This document shows positions 3,818 to 59,046 of a stretch of 64,000 bases of DNA, piece by piece. Position 1 is the stretch's first letter. Every line of letters starts with the position of its first letter. Source of the DNA: Candidatus Nomurabacteria bacterium GW2011_GWD2_36_14 (GTDB taxonomy: Bacteria; Patescibacteriota; Minisyncoccia; Phycocordibacterales; UBA9973); contig LBRL01000001.1 in assembly GCA_000991405.1 (NCBI GenBank), positions 527,989 through 591,988 on the forward strand, read 5' to 3'. The position numbers and the translations under genes were made by a program. A model generated the notes under the pieces. That model was not told the DNA's origin, made no database searches, and saw only the letters and a list, made by a program, of their open reading frames with translations.

Positions 3818-3858
3818 ATAAATAGTAAAAAGTAGAAGGTAGAAAGTTAAAAATGCAT

Positions 3859-4016
3859 AAAACGGCTTGCCCGCACACCCATTTTGCTGTAGCTTTTTTG
3901 TTCTGCCGACAGAATATTTACTTATTTTTGTATTTATTACCTAATATATAGAGTATTATTATTCGTTGTATTGAAAAAGCAGAATAACAGCAAAATGGGT
4001 GTGGGGGCTTGTTTTA
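3859..4016. repeat. Long-loop hairpin element family A, copy 1
   Basis: Left arm aaaacggcttgcccgcacacccattttgctgt and right arm acagcaaaatgggtgtgggggcttgtttt are reverse complements (stem about 20-25 bp with one mismatch) around an AT-rich loop of about 100 nt. Related copies are at 13455-13600, 59047-59200 and 61059-61203. Confidence 0.8.
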
Positions 4017-5597: not shown

Positions 5598-5668
5598 GCG
5601 GGATTAGTTTATCGGTAAAATAACAGTTTTCCAAACTGTGGTGAAGGGTTCGACTCCCTTATCCCGCA
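5598..5668 (+). tRNA. tRNA-Gly (anticodon UCC), no encoded CCA
   Basis: Acceptor GCGGGAT/ATCCCGC, anticodon stem acagt/actgt with loop tttccaa giving UCC, T-loop ttcgact. Confidence 0.8.
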
Positions 5669-5670
5669 CA

Positions 5671-5707
5671 ATATGAAAAAACACCCTCTAAAGGTGTTTT
5701 TTCATAT
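5671..5707. terminator. Rho-independent terminator after the tRNA pair
   Basis: atatgaaaaaacaccctctaaaggtgttttttcatat: perfect stem with flanking A and T runs (bidirectional). Confidence 0.7.
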
Positions 5708-5885
5708 TGTGCGGGATAGCAAGCCAACTGCTTGGCTTGCGTAAGGGAGGCGAAAAGCTTTTCGTTTTTCGGTATTAACCGAAACGAAAAGGTATACTGT
5801 TCTCGTAGAGAAAGACTCCACCAATCACGCGCCGTAGGGCGAGACTTCACTTATATACTGTCCTCGTAGAGGAAGACTTCCCTTT

Positions 5886-12427: not shown

Positions 12428-13420
12428 TTAATTCGAATGAAACTTCTTGTGTACATCTCGAAGTTGCTTGTCTGTAATATGCGTATATATCTGAGTTGTG
12501 GCAATGTTGGCGTGGCCGAGCATCATTTGCACAGAGCGAATGTCGGCTCCATTGGAGAGTAAGTCCGTGGCAAACGAGTGACGAATCACGTGCGGGGTAA
12601 CTTTCTTAGATATTCCAGCTTTTATAGCATAATACTTCACGATTCTCTCTATAGAACGAGGGGTTAATCTGCCATCCTTTCCGGCGGGTGAATTACTTTT
12701 TCCACTATTCCTAGAATACTGTATAAAAAGAGGCTCATCTAAGTCCTTTCTATTCTTTAGATACTCCCGTATTGCATCCTTGGCAGAGTTTGATAAGAAG
12801 ACTACTCGCACCTTTTCACCCTTTCCTCGTATAGAGAATTCATCTTTCGATAAATCCAAGTCTCTATTGAGCGAACAAAGCTCTGAAAGACGAAGGCCTG
12901 TAGAAAAGAATAATTCTAAAATAGCCTTATCTCGCAATACTTTTAAATTCCCATAGGTCAGACCTATGGACTCTATACTTTTACTTTTTGCCCCTAGGTC
13001 CGACCTAGGGGAAGATTCGGGAGCTTTTAAAAGTCTATTCAATTCATCAGTAGAAATAAGGTCGAGCGAACGCTCTTTTATCTTGGCTAAGTCTATCCTG
13101 TCAGGAGCGAGGGAAGTGATAGACCTCTTCATAAGGTATTTAAGGAAAGACCGAAGTGCTATAAGATGATAATTCTGGGTATTTTTCTTAAGCGTTCCTG
13201 ACTGTTGCCCACGAACCTTCACTCCAGGCTGACGATTAAGGAAAAGGCGGAATTCACGAATCTTGTCATCGGTAATATCACTGGGATCACTTATTTTAGC
13301 AAATTCAAAGAATCGACTTATATAGTGATCGTAGTTATTTACAGTCTTCAGACTATTTCCTTTCTCTATTTCTACATGCTCAAGGAATTCTCTTTTTAAT
13401 TGTTCAAGTTGTGTACTCAT
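12428..13420 (-). CDS. xerC: Tyrosine site-specific recombinase XerC/XerD, with an extra linker insertion of about 20 aa
   Basis: 330 aa; the catalytic-domain motifs (GLRLSEL, HVIRHSFATDLLSNGADIRSVQMMLGHANIATTQIYTHI) are present. The linker between LLKAP and RDKAIL is about 18-20 aa longer than usual and is encoded by a palindromic 61-bp element. Confidence 0.9.
   Translation of the reverse strand: MSTQLEQLKREFLEHVEIEKGNSLKTVNNYDHYISRFFEFAKISDPSDITDDKIREFRLFLNRQPGVKVRGQQSGTLKKNTQNYHLIALRSFLKYLMKRSITSLAPDRIDLAKIKERSLDLISTDELNRLLKAPESSPRSDLGAKSKSIESIGLTYGNLKVLRDKAILELFFSTGLRLSELCSLNRDLDLSKDEFSIRGKGEKVRVVFLSNSAKDAIREYLKNRKDLDEPLFIQYSRNSGKSNSPAGKDGRLTPRSIERIVKYYAIKAGISKKVTPHVIRHSFATDLLSNGADIRSVQMMLGHANIATTQIYTHITDKQLRDVHKKFHSN
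12951..13011. repeat. 61-bp nested-palindrome element (family C), in frame inside xerC
   Basis: ccataggtcagacctatgg-actctatacttttactttttg-cccctaggtccgacctagggg. The same architecture and length occur at 54628-54688 (ccataggtcggacctaggg...ccctaggtccgacctatgg). Confidence 0.8.
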
Positions 13421-13454: not shown

Positions 13455-13600
13455 GCCTTGCCCCCACACCTACTTTTTTATAGCTTTTAAATTGTGCCAC
13501 CATTTTATCAAAAATAGTATATTTTTAAGTATAGTCTACATTACTTTTAAGATAAATCCACAAAAAGCACAATAATAAAAAAGTGGGTGTGGGGGCTTGC
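13455..13600. repeat. Long-loop hairpin element family A, copy 2
   Basis: gccttgcccccacacctactttttt ... aaaaaagtgggtgtgggggcttgc; arms complementary with one wobble position; AT-rich loop of about 100 nt. Confidence 0.8.
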
Positions 13601-13634: not shown

Positions 13635-13895
13635 ATGTTAACAACAAAGAAAAAGCAAAATATTATAAAGAAGAATCAGCTTCATGATAAAGACACAGGA
13701 AGTCCTGAGGTTCAGATTGCCGTTTTAAGTAAAAGAATCGACGAATTGGCTGACCATCTTAAAATTCACAAGAAAGACAACCATTCTCGCCGTGGACTTA
13801 TCAAAATGGTAGCAGACCGCCGAACACACCTTAAATATCTAGAAAGAACAGACAAATCTCGTCACGAAAAAGAAGTTAAAAAAATAAAAGCTTAA
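13635..13895 (+). CDS. rpsO: 30S ribosomal protein S15
   Basis: 86 aa; [38 protein letters not shown] is the S15 signature. Confidence 0.95.
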
Positions 13896-24300: not shown

Positions 24301-24396
24301 GTAATTAATAATTAATAATTAATAATGTAATATTAAAATGCCTCGGCGTCGCCGAGACATTTTAATTCGTAATTATTAATTATTAATTATTAATTA
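24301..24396. terminator. Terminator hairpin flanked by inverted (TTAATAA)n arrays
   Basis: (taattaa)x4 - ttaaaatgcctcggcgtcgccgagacattttaa - (ttattaa)x4, between convergent genes. Confidence 0.65.
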
Positions 24397-34692: not shown

Positions 34693-34727
34693 ACATTGTT
34701 ATACTATAAAGAGTAATTATTATATCC

Positions 34728-37553
34728 ATGAAAAAACAAGTAGTACAAAAAATAATACTATCGCTAATAATTTTCACACTAGTTACTCCGTACATATATC
34801 AGTCTTCTAAAGCAGAAGCTGCTAAAATAGAGTGGGATAATCCAAGTAAAAATGGTAATCCTTATAAAATACAATTGACTGATACTTTAAATGGTAAATT
34901 ACTTACCGACGTTGTTTCTTGTACAGGGTTGGTGGATTCAGGTGTAAAGGCTGTAACAACTTTTTCTTCTGATTTATTAAAAAAAGCCGTTATAAATAAA
35001 TTAAAAAAACAAAAAACAAAAACTTGTGAGCTTGCTAAAAAGGGAGCAATTTCTGCAGTGGCTGGTGCTGTAAACCTAAGTTTAACCGATATAATAAAAC
35101 AGGTTAAATGTGAGGTTGATCCTACAACGGGGATTACAAATGTAAGTGACACTGCTTCTCAAGCAAAACAGCAAGAAATATTAAACCAATCATTAAAAGA
35201 ACAAAAGAGAAAAGAATGTTTAAATGGTATTGCCATAACACTTGCTAAAAACCAACTAGCTGCTATGACTAAGTATACAATGAACTGGGTAAACTCTGGA
35301 TTTGAAGGAGACCCTATGTATGTCCGTAATATTGATACATTCATGGGAAGAATGACAGACGACATTCTTATGAAAGAACTTAATATGTTCAAGGGTCAGC
35401 CACAATACTACCCATATGGTAACAGCTTCTACCGTAGTACAATCCTTGGTAATATTGCTAGAGGTAATTTTAAAGAATCAATGAAGCAAAACTTGTCCAA
35501 TTATTTGGGATCAGGTGGACTTGGTAATGATGCGGCAAACGTAGTTGATAGATATACAAATAATTTCGGGGAAGGTGGGTGGAATGCATGGCTTGCCTTT
35601 ACTCAATACCCTCAGAATAATTATTTAGGATATACACTAAAGACAACAGAGTATATAGCTGACAAACAAAATACCCAAGTTCAAAATACCAAAGAAGAAT
35701 TGCAACAGAACAACGGTTTCCTGTCACAGAAAAAATGTGTTGTTTATGGAACTACAGAAAAAGCTGCTCAGAGAAATTCGGAAAAGGAACAAGCCCAAGC
35801 ATCACTAGCGAGAAAATTGGAGGTTAGAAATAGTCTACAGAGTGCTATGTATACAGCATGCAAAATTGTGACGAATCCTGAGTGTAAAGGAGCAAATACC
35901 AACTTTCAGATAGCAGACAATGATTATGGTGAGGAGTTCGCTCTATATGCTAAAAAGTATAGCGAGACAGATGGAGCCACACAAGGGCAAGATAGTAAGA
36001 ATTGTACTAAATGGGAAACAGTTACTCCGGGAAGTGTCATAGCAGGGAAAATAAACACATACTTGAACTCAGAAGTAACACAACTAGAACTCGTAAATGG
36101 AGTAAATGATTTCTTGTCAGGAATATTTGACTCGTTGATATCAACACTCCGAAACGAAGGTCTTTCAAGTATATCTTCTATCAATAATTCTAAGGGGGGT
36201 ACTGGTTATAATAGTCCTATATATACCGATCCTAAAACAGGAGAAACATTGACTTCAAGTAATTATACAAATGAGTCTGTGGATTTAACAAAGGATCTAG
36301 GAAATACTTACATACATGATAAGTTGGCTTATAAAGGACTTTGGAATGCTAAAACAAATACACCAAAACTATTCATGGATACGGGTATTACAAACTCATA
36401 TTATACTGTGTCTGTTGCTGGAAATACAGAAATAATTAAAAATGGATACAATGGCTGGGAAGAAGGAGACAGAGCCTTCTTTGATGGAACAAATTGGCAA
36501 AATTGGAAAAAGGGAGAATTAAACCCTATAAAGACTCGTGGGACTGTTCAAACTCAACAAGACTATTTGATTGCAGCTAGAGAAGTATTAACCATATTAC
36601 CAGGAATTATGCCGAAGCTAGGGGAGCTTGACTATTGTATTCCTGGACCAAACCCTGGCTGGCAATTGAACACAAGCGAGACATCTGACGCATTTATGGC
36701 TTATGTGGACGGGCTTGATACTGACTATACTCCTTCAGGAGGATTCCTTGGTGCCAGAGATTATACAGAAATAAAATCTCCAGACCAAAACTCAGAAATA
36801 GTTAAAACATATCAAAAAATGTTTGAAAGCCCAATAGATAAAACATTTAGTATTGCAAACATCTGGAGTAAGGTATTAAATACTTACCCTTATTCTTCAA
36901 TCATGTATACAGATACACTAAGAGAGACAGGTCTGGGATGGAAGGGGACATATCGTGAGGGAGGAGCTAAATACTCAAGATCAGAAGAAGCTATAGGGGT
37001 GGTAACAGACTTAAAAGATAAAATCTTAAACGATTTAAATTTATTCCAGACAAAATACAATACTGAAATAAACAAAATATATGGACCAAATAGTTTAATG
37101 CAAAAAGAATTTTTAGAAAATGAAAGTACCAATGAATTAACCCTAAATCCTGCCTTTTTAGAAGTGTCTAAACCGGGGTTAAACATAACAAAAGATATAA
37201 CTTCTTATAATGATACAATTAAAGAAGCAACCGATACATACACAGAAGACATAGTTACCGCAAATATAAATATCAAAAAGTTGAACCTAATAAAGGATCG
37301 TGTAAGTCAGATAATTGTAGATGCTCAGAAAAGACGAGACGTAAATCGCGAAAGAATAATTAAAGAATACAACGAAACAAATAACACAAATATTACCCGT
37401 GCAGAATATGATAAATGTGCAAAAGAAGAAAATGTTTCATTCTATGAAGACACAGAGGTCCTAAAAAGCGGCACGACTGGAACAGAAAGATGTAGTGATG
37501 GAATAGACAATGATTTGGATGGATTAGTAGATGCACAAGATCCAGATTGTTGA
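34728..37553 (+). CDS. Large secreted or surface protein with a C-terminal Cys-flanked Asp-rich (TSP3/Excalibur-like) loop
   Basis: 941 aa; signal peptide; ends in CSDGIDNDLDGLVDAQDPDC. Confidence 0.6.
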   Translation: MKKQVVQKIILSLIIFTLVTPYIYQSSKAEAAKIEWDNPSKNGNPYKIQLTDTLNGKLLTDVVSCTGLVDSGVKAVTTFSSDLLKKAVINKLKKQKTKTCELAKKGAISAVAGAVNLSLTDIIKQVKCEVDPTTGITNVSDTASQAKQQEILNQSLKEQKRKECLNGIAITLAKNQLAAMTKYTMNWVNSGFEGDPMYVRNIDTFMGRMTDDILMKELNMFKGQPQYYPYGNSFYRSTILGNIARGNFKESMKQNLSNYLGSGGLGNDAANVVDRYTNNFGEGGWNAWLAFTQYPQNNYLGYTLKTTEYIADKQNTQVQNTKEELQQNNGFLSQKKCVVYGTTEKAAQRNSEKEQAQASLARKLEVRNSLQSAMYTACKIVTNPECKGANTNFQIADNDYGEEFALYAKKYSETDGATQGQDSKNCTKWETVTPGSVIAGKINTYLNSEVTQLELVNGVNDFLSGIFDSLISTLRNEGLSSISSINNSKGGTGYNSPIYTDPKTGETLTSSNYTNESVDLTKDLGNTYIHDKLAYKGLWNAKTNTPKLFMDTGITNSYYTVSVAGNTEIIKNGYNGWEEGDRAFFDGTNWQNWKKGELNPIKTRGTVQTQQDYLIAAREVLTILPGIMPKLGELDYCIPGPNPGWQLNTSETSDAFMAYVDGLDTDYTPSGGFLGARDYTEIKSPDQNSEIVKTYQKMFESPIDKTFSIANIWSKVLNTYPYSSIMYTDTLRETGLGWKGTYREGGAKYSRSEEAIGVVTDLKDKILNDLNLFQTKYNTEINKIYGPNSLMQKEFLENESTNELTLNPAFLEVSKPGLNITKDITSYNDTIKEATDTYTEDIVTANINIKKLNLIKDRVSQIIVDAQKRRDVNRERIIKEYNETNNTNITRAEYDKCAKEENVSFYEDTEVLKSGTTGTERCSDGIDNDLDGLVDAQDPDC

Positions 37554-37624
37554 GCCACAACAACCGTAACAGCCTAAAGAGGGAAGAGTAAAAATAAGTT
37601 ATCTGATTAAATTATTAAATTAAA

Positions 37625-39223
37625 TTGTATTTTATGGAAAATAACCCTAAAAAAAGTAAAGCATTCATAATAACATTCATACTGATATTGATACTTTTGA
37701 TAGCAGGTTATTATATATACAAGAATAGAACTCAAATGTTTGATGCGAAGGGGTCTACTTCTATGAGCAAAATATTCTCGCCACTTCTAGGCACTTCTAA
37801 GACTAAAGAAGTAAAGGTTATAGAAGATCCAAATACAAAAATAACTACAACTCCAATAGTTCCTAAGAAGACTGGAGTAGTGATCACAGATGTAAACGGC
37901 AATAAGATGGTCCTATCCGAAGCAGGTGAAATACTCAAGAAAGGCGACGTACTATATATAGCAGGCTTCAACAAGAACGACCAACCAATAGTCATGAAGG
38001 CCATAGCCAATGACAAGAACAAGTCTCTGGTCTTCGGAGTGGCAGGCGAAGACATGAATAAAGGAGCCCTAGGCAACGTAATTATAGAAGGAATACTTAC
38101 TGGAGTCCCTACCAATAGGAAGGAGGGTACCCTCTGGGTAGCCAAGAATACTCTCTTCCTAAGTGACAAGGTATATGGAGGGATGACGAAGAACTCGCCA
38201 AAGGCTCCTTCGTATATAGTACCTGTCGGAAGTGTTATAAAGGTAGATCCAAAGAATGGGTCTATAAGAATAGGAGGCTTGAATGATACTCTAACTGCCA
38301 ACCTAGAGAAATTAAATCTACTACTTTTAAGTAATTCAAACATGCAACTTATAAATGCTGTTATTAGTGATCTTCGTGACTACTGGAGTTCTATATTTGG
38401 TAACGGACTCTTTGGAAATATTGACTATACAAGTGGTGGAAACATAACCCCCGGTACACCCCCTATAAATCCTATCAATATTCCAGCTGGTAATAATATA
38501 GGCGGTACTAATGTAGGTGGTGCTAACTATACTACAACTGGTAGTAATACAGAATGTTCAGATAAGATTGATAATGATGGGGATGGTCTGATAGATGAGG
38601 CTGATTCAAATTGTCATATCAGTGGAGACCTCGCTAAGGCTTATGTACCACTTCATAATTCGGAGTCAACTTCACCTGTAGACCCAAATGCTGATAAAAT
38701 AACTGATGACAATTCTTGTAAAATAATAGAACAGAATCCTTTAACCTTCACCTCTGCAGAAAAAAAAGAGCTCGATGATCTATTGCGTAAATATTATTTA
38801 ATTGCTTCTACTCTAAAAACAAAAAATGATATAAATCTTGTGTATGCTGAGATAGCACAATATAGAGCATTTATTGAACAAATAACTGATCTTACAAATC
38901 AATGTTATACTGAATTAAAATCCCCAAATTATACTGGACCAAAGACACAGTACGGAAATCCTTGGTATAAATATGATAGCAGAGGGTCTTATCTTGCAAA
39001 TAGTTTGAATTCAACTTGTAAGTACGAGAGCTCAACTACGAGTGGAAGTGGGTCCAGAAGAGGTGGAACTACCACTTCCGGATCAGCAAATGATCCTTAT
39101 TGTGAGCCAACAGTTGGAGCCAATGGTGATACCCGCCCAGAAAGATATAATTTCTGGAATATTCCAGCATTTAATTCACCAGTTGACTTGAGAGATTTCG
39201 AAATACTTTTGAATGTGTGGTAA
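37625..39223 (+). CDS. Membrane-anchored surface protein with the same Cys/Asp loop
   Basis: 532 aa; N-terminal TM; a Gly/Asn/Thr-rich linker then CSDKIDNDGDGLIDEADSNC. Confidence 0.55.
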   Translation: MYFMENNPKKSKAFIITFILILILLIAGYYIYKNRTQMFDAKGSTSMSKIFSPLLGTSKTKEVKVIEDPNTKITTTPIVPKKTGVVITDVNGNKMVLSEAGEILKKGDVLYIAGFNKNDQPIVMKAIANDKNKSLVFGVAGEDMNKGALGNVIIEGILTGVPTNRKEGTLWVAKNTLFLSDKVYGGMTKNSPKAPSYIVPVGSVIKVDPKNGSIRIGGLNDTLTANLEKLNLLLLSNSNMQLINAVISDLRDYWSSIFGNGLFGNIDYTSGGNITPGTPPINPINIPAGNNIGGTNVGGANYTTTGSNTECSDKIDNDGDGLIDEADSNCHISGDLAKAYVPLHNSESTSPVDPNADKITDDNSCKIIEQNPLTFTSAEKKELDDLLRKYYLIASTLKTKNDINLVYAEIAQYRAFIEQITDLTNQCYTELKSPNYTGPKTQYGNPWYKYDSRGSYLANSLNSTCKYESSTTSGSGSRRGGTTTSGSANDPYCEPTVGANGDTRPERYNFWNIPAFNSPVDLRDFEILLNVW

Positions 39224-39253
39224 GTAGTGAGTAGTAATAGAAAAAAATAGTAA

Positions 39254-41785
39254 GTGGTATGTAAAATAATAATGAAAAGAATTTTATCTTCTATTTTAAT
39301 ATCGTTCGTTATCCTCGCAAACTTCCTTGCGCCTTTTAGTGTAGGATGGAGTGACAAAAATAAACTCCCAAACATAGAAATAAAACAACAAAAGGCTGAG
39401 GCTGAATATAATTATGGATTAAAAGTAACTCCAACATTAGGAAACACATATATTAATCTTGGAATAGAATTAATTGAGGGAACAGCAACTGGTGATTATG
39501 CTACTATTGTTACAACATCTAGTACTGCCAAACTTGAGCTTAGAGCAACAGTATTACTAAATGATGAAAAGATAACTGATGATACTGCTAGTAATTTGGG
39601 TTCAGATAACAAAAAAACAGCCCTTAATTTAGATGGGCTAGAATCTGGAAAACCATATAAAACAAAAATTGAATTAGTAGAAGTTTTGAATAGTTTTTCT
39701 GCAAGTGGAATGCCGGGTTATGCTGGTAAAACTTCTAAAACATTATATGAAAAAATAATTGACACCCCCACAATAGAAGAAGGGGAACAAGCTGTAGTAA
39801 AAGAAGGAATAGACATAAGTGGAAAGAGTGATACACTAAAAACTCCTGTAGATAATCCCGACAACATGCCAGATTGTTCAATAGTACCAGCAAAAATAAT
39901 GGGGTGTATTGCACAAGGTTTCTATTATGTACTTTTCATGCCAACTTCATATCTTTTTGCATTGGCTGGAACCTTCTTTGATAGTACTTTTGCATATTCA
40001 GTCCAAGATACTTCCTATAGATCTGCTTTCGTAGTGCAAGGATGGGGACTTGTAAGAGACTTTTGTAATCTATTCTTCATATTTATACTTTTATATGTTG
40101 CATTTTCTACAATATTAAATGTTCACAATTTTAATACAAAACAAATAATAATAAATGTAGTAGTTATAGGATTATTCATAAACTTCAGTCTCTTTGCTAC
40201 TCAACTTATAATAGACGCATCAAATATAACTGCGAGGGTATTCTACAATTCAGATGCAATAAAAATTACAGAAAATGGGGCAAACGGAGTTACAGAAGCT
40301 ACCCCCGGCTTGGTGGTAGGTGAAGGTGGAGTTATACCTCTTTCTGCTGCCTTAGTAAACAAAGTTAATCCACAAAATTTAATTCTTCACTCTAAAGAAG
40401 TAAATAATATTCCAGACAAAGAAGGAAGAGCTAAATCCAATGCAGATGCAGCTGAAAATCTAGGGGCTGGATCATTTATACTAATAGTAATAATAGCTTC
40501 AGCTGTAAATATAGTAGGAATCATTGTTTTCCTGTCTGTAGGGCTTATGTTCATAGCTCGAGTCATAGGACTCTGGCTAGCTATGATAATGGCCCCACTG
40601 GCATTCTTCACTTATATACTTCCTGAACAAATGGCAGGAATCAAAATGATTGGATGGAAGAACTGGTGGCCAGAAACTTTCAAGCTGGCATTCCTAGCTC
40701 CAGTCTTCATGTTCTTCATGTATATAATACTCAAATTCTTGAGCTTGGACTTGATAGCAGATGTATCAAATAAAACTATTTCAAAAGACGGATTAGGATT
40801 CTTTGTGGCCACTCTTATTCCTTTCGCATTCATAATGATACTCATGTTAAAAGCAAAAGGAATTGCAAAAGATATGTCTGGAGAACTCGGACAGCAAATT
40901 ACCGGAGGTGTAGCAGCCGCAGGCGGAATGCTTCTAGGTGGCGCAGCTTTGAGTACTGCTTTCTTAGGAAGAAAGATAGTTGGTCAAGGTTTAGCTAAGG
41001 CCTCAAAAGGAGATACTGCTTCTCAACAATATATGGATCCAGCCAAAAGAGCCAATATGAATATACTTAGAAAAAGTCTTGGTTTTGTTGGTTCTGGTTT
41101 TGGTACTGGATATGGAATAAATAAGGTTCATGATTATACTGGTGGACAATTAAACAAAAAACAAAAAACAATCGAAGAAATTGACCATGCAAGACATACT
41201 GTTGATTCTGTTAAAGACAAAAGGTATAAAGATATTGAGTGGTCAAGACTTTCTAATACACAGCAACAAAATGTAAGGGGTGATTTCGTGAAAGAAAATA
41301 AGAGTAAGTGGGCACAAGATGAAGAAGACGCATATCGAAAATCAAAGAAATATAATGATAAAAAGGCACTAACGCCTACTGAGATAGCAGAACTAAGAGA
41401 TCGTGTAACAGCTAGAGCAAATAAAGAATTTGATCATGAAATAAAACTGTCTACAACAAAAGTTAAGGGGCTTAACAGGGCAATTTCACAAATTAATACA
41501 GGAAGTATGGATATAAGAAAGCTATCTGAAATAAAATCTGATAAAAGGGAAGGATTCTTTACTAAAATGCCAGTTGCTCTTACTGCCGCTATTGCTATGG
41601 GGATGCGAACAGGAATAAAAAGTAGTGGTTTAAGTGGGGGATCAATAAAGGTGGAGGGAAATTTTATGAAAGATTTAACAAACACAATCAGCGATTCATT
41701 AAAGCAAGCAAAAGTTAATGTTGATATTAGCCATGTTGGAGAAACAAAAAGTAGTGCAGACCCACACGCAGGAGGACATCATTAG
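39254..41785 (+). CDS. VirB6/TrbL-like polytopic membrane protein with a large periplasmic N-domain and a coiled-coil C-tail
   Basis: 843 aa; signal peptide, an extracytoplasmic domain of about 200 aa, then 6-7 TM helices (for example FIFILLYVAFSTI, VVVIGLFINFSLFATQLII, FILIVIIASAVNIVGIIVFLSVGLMFIARVIGLWLAMIMAPLAFF, LAFLAPVFMFFMYIIL, FFVATLIPFAFIMILML), then a charged C-terminus. Confidence 0.5.
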   Translation: MVCKIIMKRILSSILISFVILANFLAPFSVGWSDKNKLPNIEIKQQKAEAEYNYGLKVTPTLGNTYINLGIELIEGTATGDYATIVTTSSTAKLELRATVLLNDEKITDDTASNLGSDNKKTALNLDGLESGKPYKTKIELVEVLNSFSASGMPGYAGKTSKTLYEKIIDTPTIEEGEQAVVKEGIDISGKSDTLKTPVDNPDNMPDCSIVPAKIMGCIAQGFYYVLFMPTSYLFALAGTFFDSTFAYSVQDTSYRSAFVVQGWGLVRDFCNLFFIFILLYVAFSTILNVHNFNTKQIIINVVVIGLFINFSLFATQLIIDASNITARVFYNSDAIKITENGANGVTEATPGLVVGEGGVIPLSAALVNKVNPQNLILHSKEVNNIPDKEGRAKSNADAAENLGAGSFILIVIIASAVNIVGIIVFLSVGLMFIARVIGLWLAMIMAPLAFFTYILPEQMAGIKMIGWKNWWPETFKLAFLAPVFMFFMYIILKFLSLDLIADVSNKTISKDGLGFFVATLIPFAFIMILMLKAKGIAKDMSGELGQQITGGVAAAGGMLLGGAALSTAFLGRKIVGQGLAKASKGDTASQQYMDPAKRANMNILRKSLGFVGSGFGTGYGINKVHDYTGGQLNKKQKTIEEIDHARHTVDSVKDKRYKDIEWSRLSNTQQQNVRGDFVKENKSKWAQDEEDAYRKSKKYNDKKALTPTEIAELRDRVTARANKEFDHEIKLSTTKVKGLNRAISQINTGSMDIRKLSEIKSDKREGFFTKMPVALTAAIAMGMRTGIKSSGLSGGSIKVEGNFMKDLTNTISDSLKQAKVNVDISHVGETKSSADPHAGGHH

Positions 41786-41833
41786 TTTTAAGTAATAAGT
41801 AGAGTATAGTAAGAAAATTAGAATATAAAAAAT

Positions 41834-42565
41834 ATGGACCAAACAGAATTACAAGAAAAAATAGTGTTATACTACCAAAAGCTTCCAGAGGAAACTAAGG
41901 TACTTTTTGCTGGAATGTCTTGGCTTGAAACTCTTAAGGAAATAGATACAAAGTACTCTCTAAACGATGCTCAAATAGAAACCCTAGGGACAGAGACAAC
42001 AATACTCCTCCTTGGAATAATAAGTCTAGAAGATTACGTGCAAACTATAAAGGATGAAATAAAACTTGAAGGCACAGGAACAGATAATATGCTAGATGAA
42101 ATAGGAGATAAAATATTGAAAGACATAGCGCCTCTTCTGTATGAATCTTATGAAAAGAATGTGATGGAACTAGAAAAAGAGAATGTAAGTACTGATACTG
42201 TTCCTCTTCCACCTTATGCAGAAAAGAAACAAGCAGTAGAACCAAAAGTAAATCCTATCATTAATTCTGCATATTCTCACAATAATGAGACAGATATGTA
42301 CAGGGAGCATGGAATAGATGTGATATCCAACGACTATCCACAGACTACAAAAATGGACATACTTAAAAAGCAGGAAGAATTACAAGAAGAAAAGCATAAT
42401 GATAATTCAAACATAATAGCCAATAAGCTTTTCAATAATACTGCGAGTCAAAAGGTTGTGACAGATTATTCTATTCCAAAGGTTAATCCTCTTCTCAACA
42501 ACAATTCCTTGCCACAAGGTGGAATATCTACAAAGCCTCATGATCCATATCATGAGGAAATATAA
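41834..42565 (+). CDS. Acidic hypothetical protein (T4SS-locus component)
   Basis: 243 aa, Glu/Asp-rich, no TM. Confidence 0.4.
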   Translation: MDQTELQEKIVLYYQKLPEETKVLFAGMSWLETLKEIDTKYSLNDAQIETLGTETTILLLGIISLEDYVQTIKDEIKLEGTGTDNMLDEIGDKILKDIAPLLYESYEKNVMELEKENVSTDTVPLPPYAEKKQAVEPKVNPIINSAYSHNNETDMYREHGIDVISNDYPQTTKMDILKKQEELQEEKHNDNSNIIANKLFNNTASQKVVTDYSIPKVNPLLNNNSLPQGGISTKPHDPYHEEI

Positions 42566-42567
42566 AA

Positions 42568-42990
42568 ATGCAATTTAAAGTACCACAATTTATAGATATA
42601 GAAGATAAGATATTTGGTCCTTTCACCTTTCGCCAATTCGCGTACCTTATAGGTGGAGGGGGGATAGTATACGTCTTGTACAGACTACTGCCATTCTGGA
42701 TCAGTATCTTCCTCATACTTCCCATCATAGGCCTGACTATATGCCTAGTCTTTGTAAAGATAAATACTAAACCTTTCGAATACTACCTAGAAGCGGCATT
42801 TACTTACTTCATATCTAGTAAGCTTTATATCTGGAAGCAAAGATTGGTCAAAAAGAGTGACAAGCTAGAAGAGGTAAGTGCCCTTACAACAATGTCCAAC
42901 GTACCCATGCTGACAGAGAATAAACTCAAGGATTTATCGTGGAGCTTAGATATTCAAGACAAGAAAGATAATAAAATAATTAATAGTTAA
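42568..42990 (+). CDS. Small two-TM protein, VirB3-like (ConD/TcpE/PrgI-type) by position and topology
   Basis: 140 aa; two hydrophobic helices (FAYLIGGGGIVYVLYRLL; ISIFLILPIIGLTICLVFV). Its start overlaps the stop of the preceding gene. This is the typical position upstream of VirB4 in Gram-positive T4SS operons. Confidence 0.4.
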   Translation: MQFKVPQFIDIEDKIFGPFTFRQFAYLIGGGGIVYVLYRLLPFWISIFLILPIIGLTICLVFVKINTKPFEYYLEAAFTYFISSKLYIWKQRLVKKSDKLEEVSALTTMSNVPMLTENKLKDLSWSLDIQDKKDNKIINS

Positions 42991-43006
42991 GAATTAATAA
43001 TTAATA

Positions 43007-43357
43007 ATGAAGGGGAATAATATTATAAGGGAAAAAAGTTATAGTTTTAGTCTTAAAATTATTAAGATATATCAAGAATTAACTCAAGAAAAGAAGGAAT
43101 TCATACTATCAAAACAATTAATTCGTTCTGGTACATCTATAGGTGCAAATATCGAAGAATCAACAGGTGCCCAGTCTAAAAATGACTTCATCGCTAAATT
43201 GAGTATCTCGTACAAAGAAACATGGGAAACTCTTTATTGGTTAAGACTTTTGACCGATAGTGGTTTCCTTAATAAGAAACAGTCTGATATTCTTATTTTT
43301 GACTGCGAAGAGTTACTTAAAATACTAGGAGCCATACTAAAAACCTCCAAATCCTAG
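43007..43357 (+). CDS. Four-helix-bundle protein (23S rRNA intervening-sequence protein / Avd-like family)
   Basis: 116 aa; SYSFSLKIIKIY...LIRSGTSIGANIEES...FIAKLSISYKETWETLYWLRL matches the TIGR02436/PF05635-type family. It is flanked by (TTAATAA)n arrays at 42970-43009 and 43364-43464. Confidence 0.7.
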   Translation: MKGNNIIREKSYSFSLKIIKIYQELTQEKKEFILSKQLIRSGTSIGANIEESTGAQSKNDFIAKLSISYKETWETLYWLRLLTDSGFLNKKQSDILIFDCEELLKILGAILKTSKS

Positions 43358-43468
43358 GGTTTCATTATTAATTATTCAATGTGTGATATAATAAAAAGGT
43401 AATTAAAGTGTTTTGATTTATGTTTCTAAATTATTAATTATTAATTCTTAATTATTAATTACTTACCT

Positions 43469-44122
43469 ATGGCAATAGACGCAAAAGCGGCACAAAGTTT
43501 CGTACCAATAAAAGAAGTTCGCAATGGAGTCATCGTACTGAAGGATGGGGGGCTTCGAGCCGTCCTTATCGCTTCATCTATCAACCTTTCACTTAAGGCC
43601 TCCGATGAGCAAGTCGCTATTATCAACCAATTCCAAAACTTCCTAAACGGGCTAGATTTCCCCACACAGATAGTCATACAATCTAGACGTCTCGATATAC
43701 GACCATACCTACTCATGCTTGATGGTCGCCTCAAAGAACAAACAGAACCACTTCTAAAAATTCAAACCAAGGAGTACATAGACTTCATTAAATCTTTCAC
43801 CGATGAAGTAAATATTATGACCAAGACCTTCTTTGTTGTCGTACCTTATAGTTCAAGTGTCATTAATGCTAAGAGTGGATTAATGGATAGTATTCTAAGT
43901 GGTGGCACTCAAAAGAAGCCAGTGGACGACAGCAAGAAGGCTGTGGACTTGGCAACCTTTGAAGAGAAGCGTAGCCAGCTCGAACAGAGAACCAACGTCA
44001 TTATAAGTGGACTAAGTGGCATAGGAATACGAAGTAGTGTACTGAAGACAGACGAAGTTGTAGAACTTTTCTATAAAACATTCAACCCAGGAGATATTAG
44101 TCAGGGAATAAAATTACAATAA
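43469..44122 (+). pseudogene. virB4: VirB4-family ATPase, N-terminal 217-aa fragment (separated from the rest by one in-frame TAA)
   Basis: VPIKEVRNGVIVLKDGGLRAVLIASSINLSLKASDEQVAIINQFQNFLNGLDFPTQIV matches the N-terminus of Gram-positive VirB4 homologues (TcpF/TraE/PrgJ type). The stop at 44120-44122 is followed 6 nt later, in the same frame, by the ATG of the next ORF. Confidence 0.55.
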
Positions 44123-44128
44123 AACAAA

Positions 44129-45958
44129 ATGTCATTATTTTCATCAATATTTAAAAAAGGGGATGATAAAAAGCCACAGGGTCAAGTGATGCCTGTCTTG
44201 CCTACGGAAATATACAAGGCGGCAAATCTGGAACTCCAAGACGTCATTGCTCCTTCGGCTCTACAAATAACTCCAAAAGGTATTAACCTTGGGGACAAGA
44301 TAGCACGAACCTTCTTCGTTATTTCCTATCCTCGATACTTAACCGACAACTGGTTCTCACCGATTGTGAACCTCGACAAAGTCTTCGATGTATCTATATT
44401 CATCCACCCTATTGAAACTGCAGATATATTGAGATCATTCCAAAAGAAGGTAGCTGAGGTTCAAAGTCAGATATCTGTACGAGAGGCGAAGGGTCTAGTA
44501 CGTGACCCAATGCTCGATACTGCCTATCAAGACTTAGAAGGACTTCGCGATAACTTGATGCAGGCTCAGGAGAAAATGTTTGACGTAGGACTATATATTA
44601 CAGTCTATGCCGACAACGAGAACGACATGTTCAAAATAGAAAGTGAGATCAAGTCCCTTCTTGACTCCAAGCTTGTATATATAAAGCCCGCTCTCTTCCA
44701 GCAAGACGAAGGGTTCAAGAGCGTCATACCACTTGGTATGGACGTGCTGGGTATACACCAGAAGCTCAACACTGAGCCACTTTCTAGTCTCTTCCCATTT
44801 GTGTCTTTCGACCTTACTTCTGATAAGGGAATTCTATATGGGGTAAACAGACACAATAGTAGTCTTATCATCTTTGATAGATTCTCTCTACCAAACTACA
44901 ACTCCATTACTTTCGCAACAGCTGGAGCTGGTAAGTCGTATGCAACCAAGCTTGAGATTATTCGTACACTCATGTTCGATGCAGAAGTCATAGTCATAGA
45001 CCCCGAAAGAGAGTATGAATACCTAGCAGAAGCAATAGGGGGTAGATACTTCAATATTTCACTTTCTTCCGATCACCACATCAACCCTTTCGACCTTCCT
45101 ATCCCTAGACCAGATGAAACTGCGGCTGATGTACTTCGTGCCAATACTATTAATCTTGTAGGACTCTTCCGCATAATGCTAGGAGGACTGACTCCTGAAG
45201 AAGATTCTATAATCGACAGAGCTATTACCGAGACTTATGCCTTGAAAGATATAACAGCCGAATCCAACTTTGCCAACATTGAGCCACCACTACTTTCAGA
45301 CTTTGAAGTCGTACTGGCAGGAATGGATGGAAGTAACTCCCTTATACAACGTCTTACCAAGTATACTCACGGTTCTTGGGCTTCGTTTATAAACAAACCT
45401 TCCAATGTAGATATCAATCGCAAATTCGTCGTCTTCTCTGTTCGAGATATGGAGGACGAGCTTAAACCTGTGGCTATGTATATAGTTACTCACTTCATAT
45501 GGAATGCTGTCCGCAAGACTCTTAAGAAGAGACTCTTAGTCGTTGACGAGGCTTGGTGGATGATGAAGTCAGAAGACACAGCTTCGTTCCTATACTCTAT
45601 TGCCAAGAGAGGGCGTAAATACTATCTAGGACTTGCCACTATTACTCAGGACGTAGGAGACTTCATGAAGAGTCCTTATGGAGTGCCTATTGTGACCAAC
45701 TCTTCTATTCAACTTCTACTTAAACAGTCGCCGGCCACTATCGACGTCCTTCAGAAGACTTTCAACCTGACAGATGAGGAGAAGTACTTGCTTCTGGAAG
45801 CCAATGTGGGAGAGGGTATCTTCTTCGCAGGACTAAAGCACGTCGCAGTGAAGACTATTGCCTCGTATACAGAAGACCAGATCATTACCTCTGATCCTTC
45901 GCAAATCTTGGCCATTAGAAAAGCCAAGGATGATCTTGAAATGGCGGGAGGAAAGTAA
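44129..45958 (+). CDS. virB4: VirB4/TrbE/ConE-like T4SS ATPase (C-terminal 609 aa)
   Basis: The VirB4 mid-domain pattern (VIAPSALQITPKGINLGDKIARTFFVISYPRYLTDNWF) fits the IAP...G...R-hh-V-x-YPR...W pattern. Walker A is FATAGAGKS. Walker B is LLVVDEAWWMM, and the DEAW motif is typical of VirB4/TraC. Confidence 0.7.
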   Translation: MSLFSSIFKKGDDKKPQGQVMPVLPTEIYKAANLELQDVIAPSALQITPKGINLGDKIARTFFVISYPRYLTDNWFSPIVNLDKVFDVSIFIHPIETADILRSFQKKVAEVQSQISVREAKGLVRDPMLDTAYQDLEGLRDNLMQAQEKMFDVGLYITVYADNENDMFKIESEIKSLLDSKLVYIKPALFQQDEGFKSVIPLGMDVLGIHQKLNTEPLSSLFPFVSFDLTSDKGILYGVNRHNSSLIIFDRFSLPNYNSITFATAGAGKSYATKLEIIRTLMFDAEVIVIDPEREYEYLAEAIGGRYFNISLSSDHHINPFDLPIPRPDETAADVLRANTINLVGLFRIMLGGLTPEEDSIIDRAITETYALKDITAESNFANIEPPLLSDFEVVLAGMDGSNSLIQRLTKYTHGSWASFINKPSNVDINRKFVVFSVRDMEDELKPVAMYIVTHFIWNAVRKTLKKRLLVVDEAWWMMKSEDTASFLYSIAKRGRKYYLGLATITQDVGDFMKSPYGVPIVTNSSIQLLLKQSPATIDVLQKTFNLTDEEKYLLLEANVGEGIFFAGLKHVAVKTIASYTEDQIITSDPSQILAIRKAKDDLEMAGGK

Positions 45959-45999
45959 GTTGTGGATATAGTATCTCTATCGTATAATATAAAGAGATA

Positions 46000-46995
46000 A
46001 TGATGAATAATAAATTCATAAAAATTTTAGGAATAATTATGGTAATAAGCATACTTTCTATGCCATCTTTTTCTTTGGCTGAATCTGAAATATCTATACG
46101 TGAAAGTGACATAGATGTACAAATGTGGCCAGAAATTCCAGAGCCTTATCAAGATGTAAACATAAAGCTAGTAAGTTATGCTACAGACTTAAACAAGGCA
46201 ATCATTGAATGGAGAGTGGGCTCAAATATAGTACTTTCTGGATATGGAAAAATAAACTATTCAATGAAAGCTCCGGGCCCAAATATAACTACAAATATTA
46301 TATTATCTATAACTCCAGTAAATTCTATTAGTAAAATAATAAAACAAATTGTAGTACAACCCTCAGATATAGAGGTACTATGGGAAGCAGTTGATGGGTA
46401 TACGCCACCTTTCTATAAGGGTAAGTCTTTAATATCAAAGGAGGGAACTATAAAATTGGTAGCAATACCAAACTCTTCAACTATTAAAAGCGGTAGGGGA
46501 AATATTTCATACAAATGGATGAGGGACGACGCAACAGTAGAAGAGGTATCGGGATATAACAAAGATTCATATATATTTGAAAATAATGTCCTCAAATCAA
46601 ATGAGACTATAAACTTAACTGCTTCTTCTGTAGACGGATCATATAATGCAAATAAAAATTTAGATATACCTATATACTCTCCTAAGGTATTATTCTACAA
46701 AAAGTCTCCTACAGAGGGAGTGCAGTATAATAAAGTACTAGATAGTAATACAATCTTTACAGGAGACGAAATGACTATAGTGGCAGAGCCCTACTTCTTG
46801 GCAATAAAAGGGAATGAAAATTTGTTTAATTATACTTGGAATATAAATGGCGATCCTATAAAAACTCCCTCAAAGAAAACAGAGCTTACTATTCGCCCAA
46901 CAGCAAGAGGAGGGTATGCCAATATTGACGTGACTTTGGAAAATGTTAACAAGATTTTCCAAAAAGTTTCTGGGGCATTAAAATTAACACTATAA
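46000..46995 (+). CDS. Secreted beta-rich hypothetical protein
   Basis: 331 aa; signal peptide (ILGIIMVISILSMPSFSLA). Confidence 0.45.
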   Translation: MMNNKFIKILGIIMVISILSMPSFSLAESEISIRESDIDVQMWPEIPEPYQDVNIKLVSYATDLNKAIIEWRVGSNIVLSGYGKINYSMKAPGPNITTNIILSITPVNSISKIIKQIVVQPSDIEVLWEAVDGYTPPFYKGKSLISKEGTIKLVAIPNSSTIKSGRGNISYKWMRDDATVEEVSGYNKDSYIFENNVLKSNETINLTASSVDGSYNANKNLDIPIYSPKVLFYKKSPTEGVQYNKVLDSNTIFTGDEMTIVAEPYFLAIKGNENLFNYTWNINGDPIKTPSKKTELTIRPTARGGYANIDVTLENVNKIFQKVSGALKLTL

Positions 46996-47015
46996 TACTT
47001 GTCCCGTTAGAAGTC

Positions 47016-48617
47016 TTGATTATTATGAGAACAAACATAAACATGAAAGAATACAAAAAAACAACAAAAAAATTATTAAATACCTCTTCTAATGGGATGA
47101 AAAAAATCTTTTCTAAAATAATAATATCCTTTGTTTTGTTTAGTTTTATTATTCCTTTGTCAATAAATTTAAATAGGAGTGAAGTTTTGGCGGCTGAAAC
47201 TTGGTATTATACAAGGTTAGGTGATATAGGATACACTGAAAGGGTAAATTCCATAGATTATGCAATGGAATCTGATTGTCTAAAAGATCTTAAAAGCGTT
47301 CATTCAAGTCGAGAACCTAGTACTGTTTGTTATAAAAAAAATGTCGTTGTTCAAACAGAGAATAATACAGAAGGAACATATTGGTTTAGGGACATGGATA
47401 ATGCCTTCAGGGGAACATTAGGCCCGCTTAAACTTCCCGGTTTTACAACATCACAAGAATGTGAGAATGCAAAAAATACATATTGGGGTCCAAATTCTAA
47501 TAATGCCGCCAGTAAATTACCTTGTTATTTAATATCTAGTGAACAGGTACTTTTAAATTTTGAGCTCGAAAAACAAAAAAACGCAAAAATGCCAGGTGAT
47601 GATTCTGTGCCAATCACTCCCAAAATCGGAGCAACGGAAAATAATAATATTTACAAAATGCTAGTACCTCTGCCGGGGATTACTTGTATGGATAATACGG
47701 GTAAAGATCCAAGCTGTATCGGAAACAATGTAGGGACGTATTTAAATTTTATCTTCAAATTTGGTATTGGACTATGTGCAGCGCTTGCAGTAGTCATGCT
47801 TATAATCTACGGTATTACATATATGGGGGATGAATCAATCTTTGGTAAGACTGAGGCAAAGAAGAAAATGTTTGGAGCTATCATAGGGCTTATAATTGCA
47901 ATAGGTGGCTGGGCACTTCTAAACACAATCAACCCAGACCTGACGGGGAAGAATGGATTGGTAATCGATTCGGTAGAGGTTAAAGCTCGTACAGATGATC
48001 CTGATTTTATTCAAAACATTTCTTCTCTTGATACAAAAAATGTAACTGCATTAAGTTTTAGTGATCCATTATTTAAAGGATATTTAGCTCATCAACAAGG
48101 ACCTGCAGGTGCTGCTGCTATTATTTGGGCTACAAGCAAGGGATTGAATGAGGTTCCAAGTGATAATCCTTTCACAAACTCACCTGTAAATACAAATATG
48201 AAGAGTAATTTCCCTGCAACAGATGCAACTAAAGTAATAGGTACTTCTGTTTTAACCCCAGCAAACTTCTTAAGATACTGGTCGTTAAAAACAGCCGCAG
48301 CAAAAGCAAAAACTGGTCCAATTTTCCCCGCTATTGAGGCTGCATTAAAAAAAGTTTCTTCTGAGACAGGGGTACCTCTGGAGACTCTGGTGGCAATCTG
48401 TCGAATAGAATCTGCTGCTGGCTGTACAAACGAAAGCTCTATAACAAAATCAAATGGTAGCTTTCAGGGATTATTTCAAATAGGTAGTGCGGCGTGGAAT
48501 GATTATGGAAATAAAAATGGAAATATACTTGACCCATATGAAAACGCACTTGCCGCAGCTAAATACTACAAATCTAATCTTCAATCTATACAAAATTTAT
48601 TATCAAAAAATAGCTAA
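47016..48617 (+). CDS. VirB1-like lytic transglycosylase (SLT domain) fused to a pilin-like TM hairpin and a Cys-containing N-domain
   Basis: 533 aa; signal/TM; central two-helix hairpin FIFKFGIGLCAALAVVMLIIYGITYMGDESIFGKTEAKKKMFGAIIGLIIAIGGWALL; C-terminal SLT-like motifs (VAICRIESAAG, GLFQIGSAAW, AAAKYY). Confidence 0.55.
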   Translation: MIIMRTNINMKEYKKTTKKLLNTSSNGMKKIFSKIIISFVLFSFIIPLSINLNRSEVLAAETWYYTRLGDIGYTERVNSIDYAMESDCLKDLKSVHSSREPSTVCYKKNVVVQTENNTEGTYWFRDMDNAFRGTLGPLKLPGFTTSQECENAKNTYWGPNSNNAASKLPCYLISSEQVLLNFELEKQKNAKMPGDDSVPITPKIGATENNNIYKMLVPLPGITCMDNTGKDPSCIGNNVGTYLNFIFKFGIGLCAALAVVMLIIYGITYMGDESIFGKTEAKKKMFGAIIGLIIAIGGWALLNTINPDLTGKNGLVIDSVEVKARTDDPDFIQNISSLDTKNVTALSFSDPLFKGYLAHQQGPAGAAAIIWATSKGLNEVPSDNPFTNSPVNTNMKSNFPATDATKVIGTSVLTPANFLRYWSLKTAAAKAKTGPIFPAIEAALKKVSSETGVPLETLVAICRIESAAGCTNESSITKSNGSFQGLFQIGSAAWNDYGNKNGNILDPYENALAAAKYYKSNLQSIQNLLSKNS

Positions 48618-48624
48618 TTAATAA

Positions 48625-49824
48625 ATGCCCAGAAAAACAAAAATTATTTTAATATCAGTGTTCATATTTGTTATAGCAGTTTTGCTTGGTGTTTATTTCT
48701 ATAACAAAAGTAAAACTCCAAATACTGTGGATCCAAATGCAGGCTTCTACCAAAAGTTCAATCCATTTGGAACAAGCACCAAGGTAGATAATGGGGGAGA
48801 TACTACAAATACAACTACTGATAATGTAGACACAACCCTAAAAGTGAATTCAAGATTTCACAAACTCACAGACTTCGCAGTAGCTGGAGCAACATCATTC
48901 GAAGACACAAGGGATGAGGCTACAGTACCATCTCTACGCTACGTAGAGCGTGCTACAGGCCATGTATACCAAATGTACCTCGATACAAAAGTTACTGGCA
49001 AGATATCAAACTCTACAATCCCTGGAGTATATGAAACTATATTCGACGGTAAGGCCAACTCGGTCATCTATAGATATGCATCAGAAGACAACAAGTCTAT
49101 TACGAGCTTCCTTGCCACTCTCGGAGGGAAGAGTAGCTTCCTGAATTCAAACATACTAGAAGTTGCTTTGTCTCCTGACAAAAGTAAGTTCTTCTCTGTT
49201 ATAGAAACCACAAATGGAGTCATAGGGGTCACAAAGTCTTTCGAAGAGACTAAGACTAGCCAAGTCTTCACCTCAGCTTTCTCTGAGTGGCTACCACAGT
49301 GGGCGACAACTGGTAATATATATCTGACAACCAAACCTTCATACTTGGTAGAGGGAAGTGTGTTCAACTTAAATATTGCAAATGGAACACTTTCAAAGAT
49401 TCTAGGTAGAGTGCAAGGACTTACAACTCTAGCCAACAAAGATGGTACATCATTGCTTTATGGAGCATCGCTAGACAATGGCCCAAGGCTCAATATTTTC
49501 AATATTAAGAATCATACGTCAGAAGACCTAGGTAAATATGGGCTTCCTGAGAAGTGTGTCTGGAGTAGCGACAATATAAATGTCTACTGTGCTGTACCCA
49601 ATACAATAGTAGGGAACCAGTACCCCGACTCTTGGTACCAAGGAGTTATATCTTTCGATGACTTCTTCGTTAAAATAAATACAGTTACTAAAGAATCTGC
49701 AACTCTAGCTAATTCGAAGGATGAAGTACCTGTAGATGGTACAAATCTATTCTTGAACAAAGATGAGAGTAAATTATTCTTTATAAATAAGAAAGACTCC
49801 ACTTTATGGAGTCTTGACCTCTAA
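48625..49824 (+). CDS. Membrane-anchored beta-propeller-like (TolB-like) hypothetical protein
   Basis: 399 aa; N-terminal TM (IILISVFIFVIAVLLGVYF) then a repetitive beta-rich domain. Confidence 0.4.
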   Translation: MPRKTKIILISVFIFVIAVLLGVYFYNKSKTPNTVDPNAGFYQKFNPFGTSTKVDNGGDTTNTTTDNVDTTLKVNSRFHKLTDFAVAGATSFEDTRDEATVPSLRYVERATGHVYQMYLDTKVTGKISNSTIPGVYETIFDGKANSVIYRYASEDNKSITSFLATLGGKSSFLNSNILEVALSPDKSKFFSVIETTNGVIGVTKSFEETKTSQVFTSAFSEWLPQWATTGNIYLTTKPSYLVEGSVFNLNIANGTLSKILGRVQGLTTLANKDGTSLLYGASLDNGPRLNIFNIKNHTSEDLGKYGLPEKCVWSSDNINVYCAVPNTIVGNQYPDSWYQGVISFDDFFVKINTVTKESATLANSKDEVPVDGTNLFLNKDESKLFFINKKDSTLWSLDL

Positions 49825-50291
49825 TTGTTTATATCTCCTACATATTTTATTACTACTCTTCTGCTTGGGCCGTATCCTTCGGACTCAGTTTTAATATCGG
49901 GAATACCTTCTAAAAACATATGTATAATGCGACGTTCGTTGGCAGGCATGGGGTCTACTTCTATGTTACTCTTGAAATACTTGGCACGTTCAGCCATCAT
50001 GTGTGCAATATTCTTCAATCCATCAAATCTTTTCTTTTGATAACCATTCACGTCAACAAAAATATTGGATAGCTCGGTCTCTTGTCCTACCGCTTTCTCT
50101 ACAATTTTTCTAACAAGATGATTGAGGGATCTTAGTGTTTCTCCTTCGCGTCCAATCATGAATCTGGAGTCGGGGGTCTCTATCATACACCAGAGCATAT
50201 TACCCTCAAGAGCTATCTCAAGCTTGGAGATAGTACAAGCTGTGTGCTTGAAAATATCTTCTATTGTGGATTTAATTATTGCTTCATTCAT
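49821..50291 (-). CDS. jag: Jag/KhpB RNA-binding protein (KH + R3H)
   Basis: 156 aa; KH-like (FMIGREGETLRSLNHLV) and R3H (PMPANERRIIHMFLEG) motifs; immediately downstream of yidC. Confidence 0.85.
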   Translation of the reverse strand: MNEAIIKSTIEDIFKHTACTISKLEIALEGNMLWCMIETPDSRFMIGREGETLRSLNHLVRKIVEKAVGQETELSNIFVDVNGYQKKRFDGLKNIAHMMAERAKYFKSNIEVDPMPANERRIIHMFLEGIPDIKTESEGYGPSRRVVIKYVGDINN

Positions 50292-58967: not shown

Positions 58968-59046
58968 AATTTAATTAAAATTTAAAAACATATTATAATA
59001 ATTATTTGTATCAAAATATAAATTTCTTTGCAATAGGCAAAGGGCT

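Follow-up and report, generated by a model that had tools for sequence, protein, structure and literature searches.

Hairpin elements between housekeeping genes of a Nomurabacteria-like genome as a probable family of MITEs

Bacterial MITEs are usually shorter than 200 bp, with lengths of up to ~400 bp, and consist of terminal inverted repeats around a core, flanked by direct repeats; they have no internal transposase gene and give a long RNA stem-loop (Delihas 2011, PMC3184786). The Correia elements of Neisseria (CREE/NEMIS) are intergenic MITEs of ~104-157 bp with ~26-bp terminal inverted repeats, which form long RNA hairpins, differ in presence or absence between close strains, and have documented promoters and IHF sites (PMC3184786). 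In Enterobacteria, ERIC (or IRU) is a ~127-bp imperfect palindrome of intergenic location, flanked by TA and likewise classed as a MITE, whereas RUP of Streptococcus pneumoniae, Nezha and Chunjie are non-coding bacterial MITEs of 107-235 bp with terminal inverted repeats (PMC3184786). REPs, in turn, are short G+C-rich stem-loops that do not have terminal inverted repeats around a core (PMC3184786). Literature searches on MITEs in Patescibacteria or the Candidate Phyla Radiation (CPR) found no paper.

The window, that is, the whole stretch of 64,000 nucleotides analysed here, contains four inverted-repeat elements. A first-pass annotation had already placed them, and they are borne out with refined limits:

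3870 to 4007, plus strand: copy c1, subfamily A, 138 bp (arms 3870-3890 and 3987-4007; inner helix 3900-3906/3979-3985)
13461 to 13595, plus strand: copy c2, subfamily B, 135 bp (arms 13461-13481 and 13575-13595; inner helix 13491-13497/13567-13573)
59055 to 59191, plus strand: copy c3, subfamily B, 137 bp (arms 59055-59075 and 59171-59191; inner helix 59085-59091/59163-59169)
61060 to 61200, plus strand: copy c4, subfamily A, 141 bp (arms 61060-61080 and 61180-61200; inner helix 61090-61096/61172-61178)

A repeat finder gave arms of 21-22 nt for c1-c4, 95% complementary and separated by 93-99 nt, in keeping with the 20-25 bp first proposed for the arms but not with the 100-120 nt proposed for the loops. 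The terminal inverted repeats of 21 bp begin with CCCSCACAC, and the ends of c1-c4 read CCCSCACAC / GTGTGSGGG, just as the conserved CCC(G/C)CACAC stem ends of the annotation had it. They are followed by a second, bulged inner helix of 7 bp, offset by a conserved one-sided bulge of 9 nt, and by an AT-rich interior (16-24% G+C) where the longest stop-free stretch is of 38 codons; no ORF exceeds that length, none is common to different copies, and no transposase is encoded. Alignment of the four copies separates two subfamilies, A (c1, c4) and B (c2, c3), which have in common the 9-bp tips, a left box T-N-GCTT-N5-TTSTGCC and a right box AANAAGCASAAT. The outermost nine bases of the arms (CCCSCACAC) are nearly invariant, and the inner twelve vary by element lineage. 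In the window, 0.77 occurrences of the motif CCSCACAC would be expected and 10 are found, 8 of which are element tips; for the left-end signature CCSCACAC-N11-TNGCTT-N5-TTSTGCC, the expectation is 0.00 and the count exactly 4, and the same holds for the subterminal box by itself. The hairpins are one repeat family, far above chance, and all four copies are oriented on the plus strand irrespective of the strand of the neighbouring genes. The window belongs to a small-genome Paceibacterium (Parcubacteria), and its nearest homologues bear the names Candidatus Paceibacterota or Nomurabacteria in their sources. The same DNA is present in Rifle-type groundwater assemblies, including an 800-kb scaffold, and same-species strains (loci L005-L019 and L024-L026) carry identical copies, which are for this reason uninformative on the evolution of the elements.

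Exact 4-bp direct repeats stand on either side of each of the four copies (CTTG, CTTG, AAAA and TTTA, respectively), a feature that the first-pass annotation had missed:

3866 to 3869, no strand: left target-site duplication of c1, CTTG; a single CTTG stands here in the related loci L039 and L031
4008 to 4011, no strand: right duplication of c1, CTTG; the conserved stretch in front of hup starts exactly here
13457 to 13460, no strand: left duplication of c2, CTTG, from flank comparison
13596 to 13599, no strand: right duplication of c2, CTTG, from flank and empty-site comparison
59051 to 59054, no strand: left duplication of c3, AAAA, from flank and empty-site comparison
59192 to 59195, no strand: right duplication of c3, AAAA, from flank and empty-site comparison
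61056 to 61059, no strand: left duplication of c4, TTTA, from flank comparison
61201 to 61204, no strand: right duplication of c4, TTTA, which includes the TAA stop (61202-61204, minus strand) of the T2SSE ATPase gene

The syntenic loci of related species, obtained through homologues of RuvB, L34 and the CCA enzyme, offer filled and empty versions of orthologous sites across six related species, the 4-mer being present once in the empty ones. The c4 site is empty in L020, where it reads GAGGAATAAAAAAACATAAATC, against GAGGAATAAA, c4 and TAAAATTAAAAAAACATAAATC in the window (reverse strand). The c3 site is empty in L020 and L028 (GTTATCCACAG) and in L022 (GCGTTTTCCACAG), against GGGGGTTTT, c3 and TTTTCCACAG in the window. 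In L039, the empty c1 site reads AAAAGGCTTGTTTTAAAATAACC, followed by ~130 bp identical to the window, with L031 arranged alike, and at the empty c2 site of both L039 and L031 a single CTTG precedes the conserved upstream region of rpsO. Three versions of the arms (c1, c4 and B-type) were inserted here after the split from these empty-site relatives. On the other hand, L030, with a CCA enzyme 89% identical, carries an orthologue of c2 (c2', 5712-5847) at the identical site and with the identical duplication, which indicates that this insertion is older than their split.

Moreover, the sister species L023, whose L34 is identical to that of the window and whose TrpRS is 89% identical, carries two short relatives with the family ends, s1 and s2, each with a 4-bp duplication of its own. 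The first, of 70 bp and with the duplication TTTA, lies in the rpmH-dnaA spacer, at a target that is free in the window:

51879 to 51882, no strand: unoccupied target TTTT in the rpmH-dnaA spacer, where s1 sits in L023

The second, of 73 bp, is found at the very site that c3 occupies in the window. There, the 137-bp c3 has the duplication TTTT (listed above as AAAA) and the 73-bp s2 has TTAT, and both 4-mers are alleles of empty relatives, which argues for two independent hits on one preferred target. The members of the family known from the window and the fetched related loci are 7 (c1-c4, c2', s1 and s2), all with 21-bp arms having 0-2 mismatches per arm pair, and with interiors that range from 28 to 99 nt over short and long forms. 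All six independent insertions (c1, c2/c2', c3, c4, s1, s2) show an exact 4-bp flanking repeat, and in none of the six is it as long as 5 bp; at random window positions with the same spacing, flanks match over 4 bp at a rate of 0.006 per site.

No further members turned up in ~240 kb of fetched DNA that was searched with models of the copies, both an nhmmer profile and a covariance model. An extra covariance-model match in L030 (3-54) was discarded as a family member, since it corresponds to the terminator hairpin of tRNA-Gly. Here, as at 5660-5718 of the window, a perfect 26-bp hairpin stands directly 3' of tRNA-Gly(TCC), with a score of 27.7 bits against the covariance model of the elements; its stem reuses the acceptor end of the tRNA (ATCCCGCAC) and resembles the A-type tip CCCGCACAC, and the hairpin is probably a terminator and not a member of the family. 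The left-end signature had no match in viral contigs, where the arm sequence alone gave only chance matches within genes, and plasmid and phage collections showed no similarity beyond AT-rich noise. A different element was observed at the T2SSE-ruvB spot, where the window has c4, in L023 (~694-836) and L028 (~2745-2880), with long AT-rich inverted arms and a G+C-rich core (GAGGRGC...GCGACGGCSCGAGC...CCTCTGA); its arms differ between both loci and remain complementary, and it has no Rfam match. Intergenic near-palindromes made of TAATTAATAATTAATAAT units, at 24302-24396 and 51050-51151 of the window, look like another repeated hairpin family.

The inverted repeats, the target-site duplications, the empty sites and the short relatives with duplications of their own indicate that these are non-autonomous transposons, and the hairpins are very probably a MITE family of a genus-level group of Paceibacteria (Parcubacteria, Nomurabacteria-like). 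Their sizes (long forms 135-141 bp, short forms 70-73 bp), their insertion polymorphism across the six related species and the stable stem-loops predicted by MFE and z score are all those of a MITE, so that the "REP/MITE-like" role offered among others in the first-pass annotation survives in its MITE half (inverted repeats, 4-bp duplications, empty sites) and not in its REP half. The most likely pathway implies a transposase encoded elsewhere that would recognise both ends of the element, cut AT-rich intergenic DNA with a 4-bp stagger and join the element in, whereupon gap repair would produce the 4-bp direct repeat. From this stagger, which points to a transposase, we infer both the type of enzyme and its action in trans. 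Duplications of 4 bp are made by IS1380, IS5, IS701 and the IS3/IS407 group, which would be candidates for the mobilising enzyme; the Pfam content of the window and of the fetched loci (~240 kb) revealed no transposase or autonomous element with the family ends. The left end of IS150 (TGTACTGCACCCATTTTGTTGG) resembles the c1 arm, a kinship that was rejected: its right end is unlike and the obligatory TG tip is absent, so that the resemblance was judged coincidental.

A further question is related to the pairing of the arms. The compensatory stem changes on which the annotation had drawn are confirmed in the alignment: among the five long copies, the 28 proposed pairs (a 21-bp outer stem and the 7-bp inner helix) are 97% paired, and 9 of them have changed in both arms, where shuffles give 4.6 +/- 1.4 and slid controls 1-2, although only about four independent arm lineages underlie these counts, which are inflated by relatedness. 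The inner helix beyond the one-sided bulge also covaries, with C-G in A and G-C in B. As previously noticed, c1 and c4 share their loop sequence, with interiors 85% identical, whereas their inner arms are 62% identical, with four compensated pairs and one uncompensated position. The opposite is seen between c2 and c3 (interiors 63% and inner arms 92% identical), which indicates that arms and interior have different histories. In the only orthologous pair found, c2 and c2', the arms differ by 3 one-sided changes and by none that is compensated, and divergence rises from 7% (arms) through 10% (interior) to 15-20% (flanks). The compensatory differences are real but belong to separate element lineages. 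In 4 of the 7 copies (c2, c2', c3 and s2) there is a C/T mismatch at arm position 11, on either arm, which suggests a recurrent C-to-T hot spot in a CCCAC/GTGGG context, possibly a methylation site.

In the case of a plain sequence-specific transposase, inner arms that are variable but paired would not be predicted, and the strong variation of the inner 12 bp within one genome, always with complementarity kept, counts to some extent against the MITE reading, as do the different histories of arms and interior, the lack of a transposase with the family ends in the DNA searched and a family of only 7 known copies. The match between both arms of a copy would be a property of the propagating element, either because its two ends would have to fit the same enzyme or because they would fold back together. 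The alternative that fares best, although it is unlikely, is an enzyme that reads the 9-bp tips and the paired stem on single-stranded or cruciform DNA, and still makes the 4-bp duplication. The inner arms could then drift freely as long as they pair, in the way that integron integrases read folded attC sites. This would fit arms that keep their outer 9 bp and vary in their inner 12 bp with complementarity preserved in each copy, an interior that is free in both length and sequence, the extent of pairing and of both-sided changes given above, and the insertion of three arm versions after the split from the empty-site relatives. Moreover, a covarying second helix with a one-sided bulge of 9 nt would be awkward for symmetric protein binding at both ends. 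Nevertheless, the counts come from about four arm lineages and are raised by kinship, matched ends are also usual for ordinary transposons that co-evolve with their own transposase, and no enzyme was found in the window or fetched loci. The known mobile elements that use single-stranded hairpins, such as IS200/IS605 and attC cassettes, make no target duplication, and we know of no transposon family that combines the reading of structure with a 4-bp duplication. Mobile hairpins of this kind, "structure-read" through 9-bp tips and a bulged paired stem with a 4-bp duplication, and with at least one copy (c1) that may be a co-opted terminator of rny, are improbable to the same degree.

The annotation had read the compensation as evidence of selection on the hairpin structure itself, with a structured RNA or a terminator among its possible roles. 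According to such a reading, the hairpins would be RNA modules of the host (terminators, 3-prime stabilisers or processing sites), and the repeats would be paralogous regulatory elements instead of parasites, which we regard as very unlikely. Predicted folds are certainly very stable on both strands (MFE from -44 to -60 kcal/mol, z from -6.5 to -11.6), as would be expected of any long inverted repeat. Regarding their gene context, c1 maps between rny and hup (both on the plus strand), c3 lies 14 bp downstream of ruvC (minus strand) and c4 abuts the stop codon of the T2SSE ATPase gene (minus strand), upstream of ruvB (minus strand), so that the location at gene 3-prime ends attributed to all copies applies to these three. 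It does not apply to c2, which is found between the start codons of two divergent genes, one of the Phage_integrase family (12428-13420, minus strand) and rpsO (13635-13895, plus strand), and is in neither of the neighbouring transcription units. The position of c2, together with an orientation independent of gene strand and the one-sided changes between c2 and c2', does not support selection on a host RNA, and insertion polymorphism with target duplications also speaks against it. The claim that wobbles follow the strand of the flanking gene fails as well: the single mismatches of c3 and c4 are G-U in the sense of the flanking genes, as a host RNA would have it, but the mismatch of s2 is C-A in that sense, c2' has one of each kind, that of c1 is G-G, and c2 is read by neither neighbour.

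The elements are not intrinsic (Rho-independent) terminators either, which have a short G+C-rich stem, a loop of 3-8 nt and a U tract, in contrast to loops of 93-99 nt. Terminator-like sites are not enriched (3 against 2.1 in shuffles for 58950-61300), one of them merely overlapping the first bases of c3, and none is formed by the paired arms of an element; promoter-like sites are not in excess at the elements. In Rfam searches of the window, only tRNAs passed the gathering threshold, with no match for the elements, for which sub-threshold hits at E<=1 were only to plant miRNA-precursor models, equivalent to generic long hairpins. A single copy deserves separate mention. A canonical terminator hairpin follows rny in L039 (1830-1880) and L031 (7800-7850), of which only the left half (AAAAATGCATAAAA) is left in the window (3818-3869), three bases from c1. 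The deletion of the other half beside c1, the remaining point in favour of a host role, suggests that c1 may have taken over termination, and this one copy may thus have been co-opted as the terminator of the rny transcript, as judged from the comparison of these loci. The inner arm of c1 and the stem of the rny terminator in L039 have the 8-mer ATTTTGCT in common, which was treated as chance. In any case, for the MITE family as a whole we conclude that arm pairing either matters for the propagation of the elements or results from it, with no sign of a host RNA function.

Other features of the same region were observed alongside. Between ruvB and c4 there is a ~150-nt hairpin (60827-61054, plus strand; arms 60897-60922 and 61027-61052), almost identical in L020, L023 and L028, whose surrounding spacers differ. 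It has a near-consensus promoter on its 5' side (TTGACA-17-TATACT with an upstream TG, 11/12 matches), a run of seven T on its 3' side and a fold z of -5.2, with no Rfam match at E<=1, and is a candidate for an unannotated small RNA, perhaps 6S-like. The TrpRS of the window (57519-58730) is 53% identical to those of L020 and L028, whose RuvB, DnaN and T2SSE are 85-96% identical, a difference which suggests that TrpRS may have been replaced by a foreign version in one lineage. Finally, the stretch 34700-50000, near the origin region, contains a type IV secretion cluster (TraG-like, TraC-like and PrgI-like genes) along with several large proteins that match no Pfam family.

That a site-specific tyrosine recombinase integrates the elements, with the 4-bp repeats as its crossover core, is hardly credible even though the Phage_integrase-family gene begins 40 bp from c2, because the flanking 4-mers vary (CTTG, AAAA, TTTA, TTAT) and equal the local pre-insertion sequence of empty relatives, as befits a target duplication and not a fixed core, and because L031 has that gene in the same place, and L039 a fragment of it, without c2, whereas c1, c3 and c4 have no such neighbour.

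The genomes of CPR bacteria, those of Paceibacteria included, measure ~1 Mb, their intergenic spacers are very short, and the general view is that they harbour few mobile elements. The family, for which the databases searched gave no match, is a known type of element, a MITE, in a CPR lineage; it is a real MITE of an ordinary kind, inserted between housekeeping genes, and it means recent and repeated transposition in such a small genome. Stop codons and the conserved DNA in front of the next gene survived insertions only a few bases away, since the stop codon next to c4 and the conserved upstream DNA next to c1 and c2 were restored by the duplication. The elements would be useful as strain and species markers, and they can also cause assembly breaks or spurious calls of small ORFs, as in L011, where a 69-aa gene is called next to c4. 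The strict matching of the arms, despite the fast change of their inner half, is the one feature that could inform on how such elements are recognised.

Among the described systems, REPs and BIMEs are alike in being intergenic palindromic repeats, and a REP nature is ruled out by a length of 135-141 bp, AT-rich interiors (16-24% G+C) and target duplications. Integron attC sites have the same general build as the present hairpins, in that a short inverted core is conserved on the outside, the inner arms vary yet remain complementary, and the central loop differs widely in length. However, the elements lack the GTTRRRY core, an integrase and a cassette array, what is inserted is the hairpin as such, and the 4-bp duplications seen here have no counterpart in attC recombination, which leaves the target unduplicated. 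The elements were accordingly rejected as attC sites, with ends CCCSCACAC / GTGTGSGGG instead of RYYYAAC / GTTRRRY and with a scattered, single occurrence between housekeeping genes. RUP, Nezha and Chunjie are similarly small non-coding elements with terminal inverted repeats; several of them have a known cognate IS with matching ends, whereas none was found for the present elements in the DNA searched. ERIC is a palindromic intergenic MITE of similar size, for which Wilson and Sharp (2006) reportedly proposed a reading as RNA structure from compensated stem changes, but it has TA flanks, belongs to another host phylum and shows no sequence similarity to the elements (no Rfam match). The Correia elements offer the likeness of a MITE size class, terminal inverted repeats, intergenic location, a long hairpin and insertion polymorphism. 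On the other hand, the promoter and IHF signals of Correia elements were not found in the present ones, which have no sequence similarity to them. Correia elements duplicate TA, as opposed to 4 bp of variable sequence here, and their ends exist as alpha and beta variants that are freely combined, whereas both arms of any copy of the present family always match.
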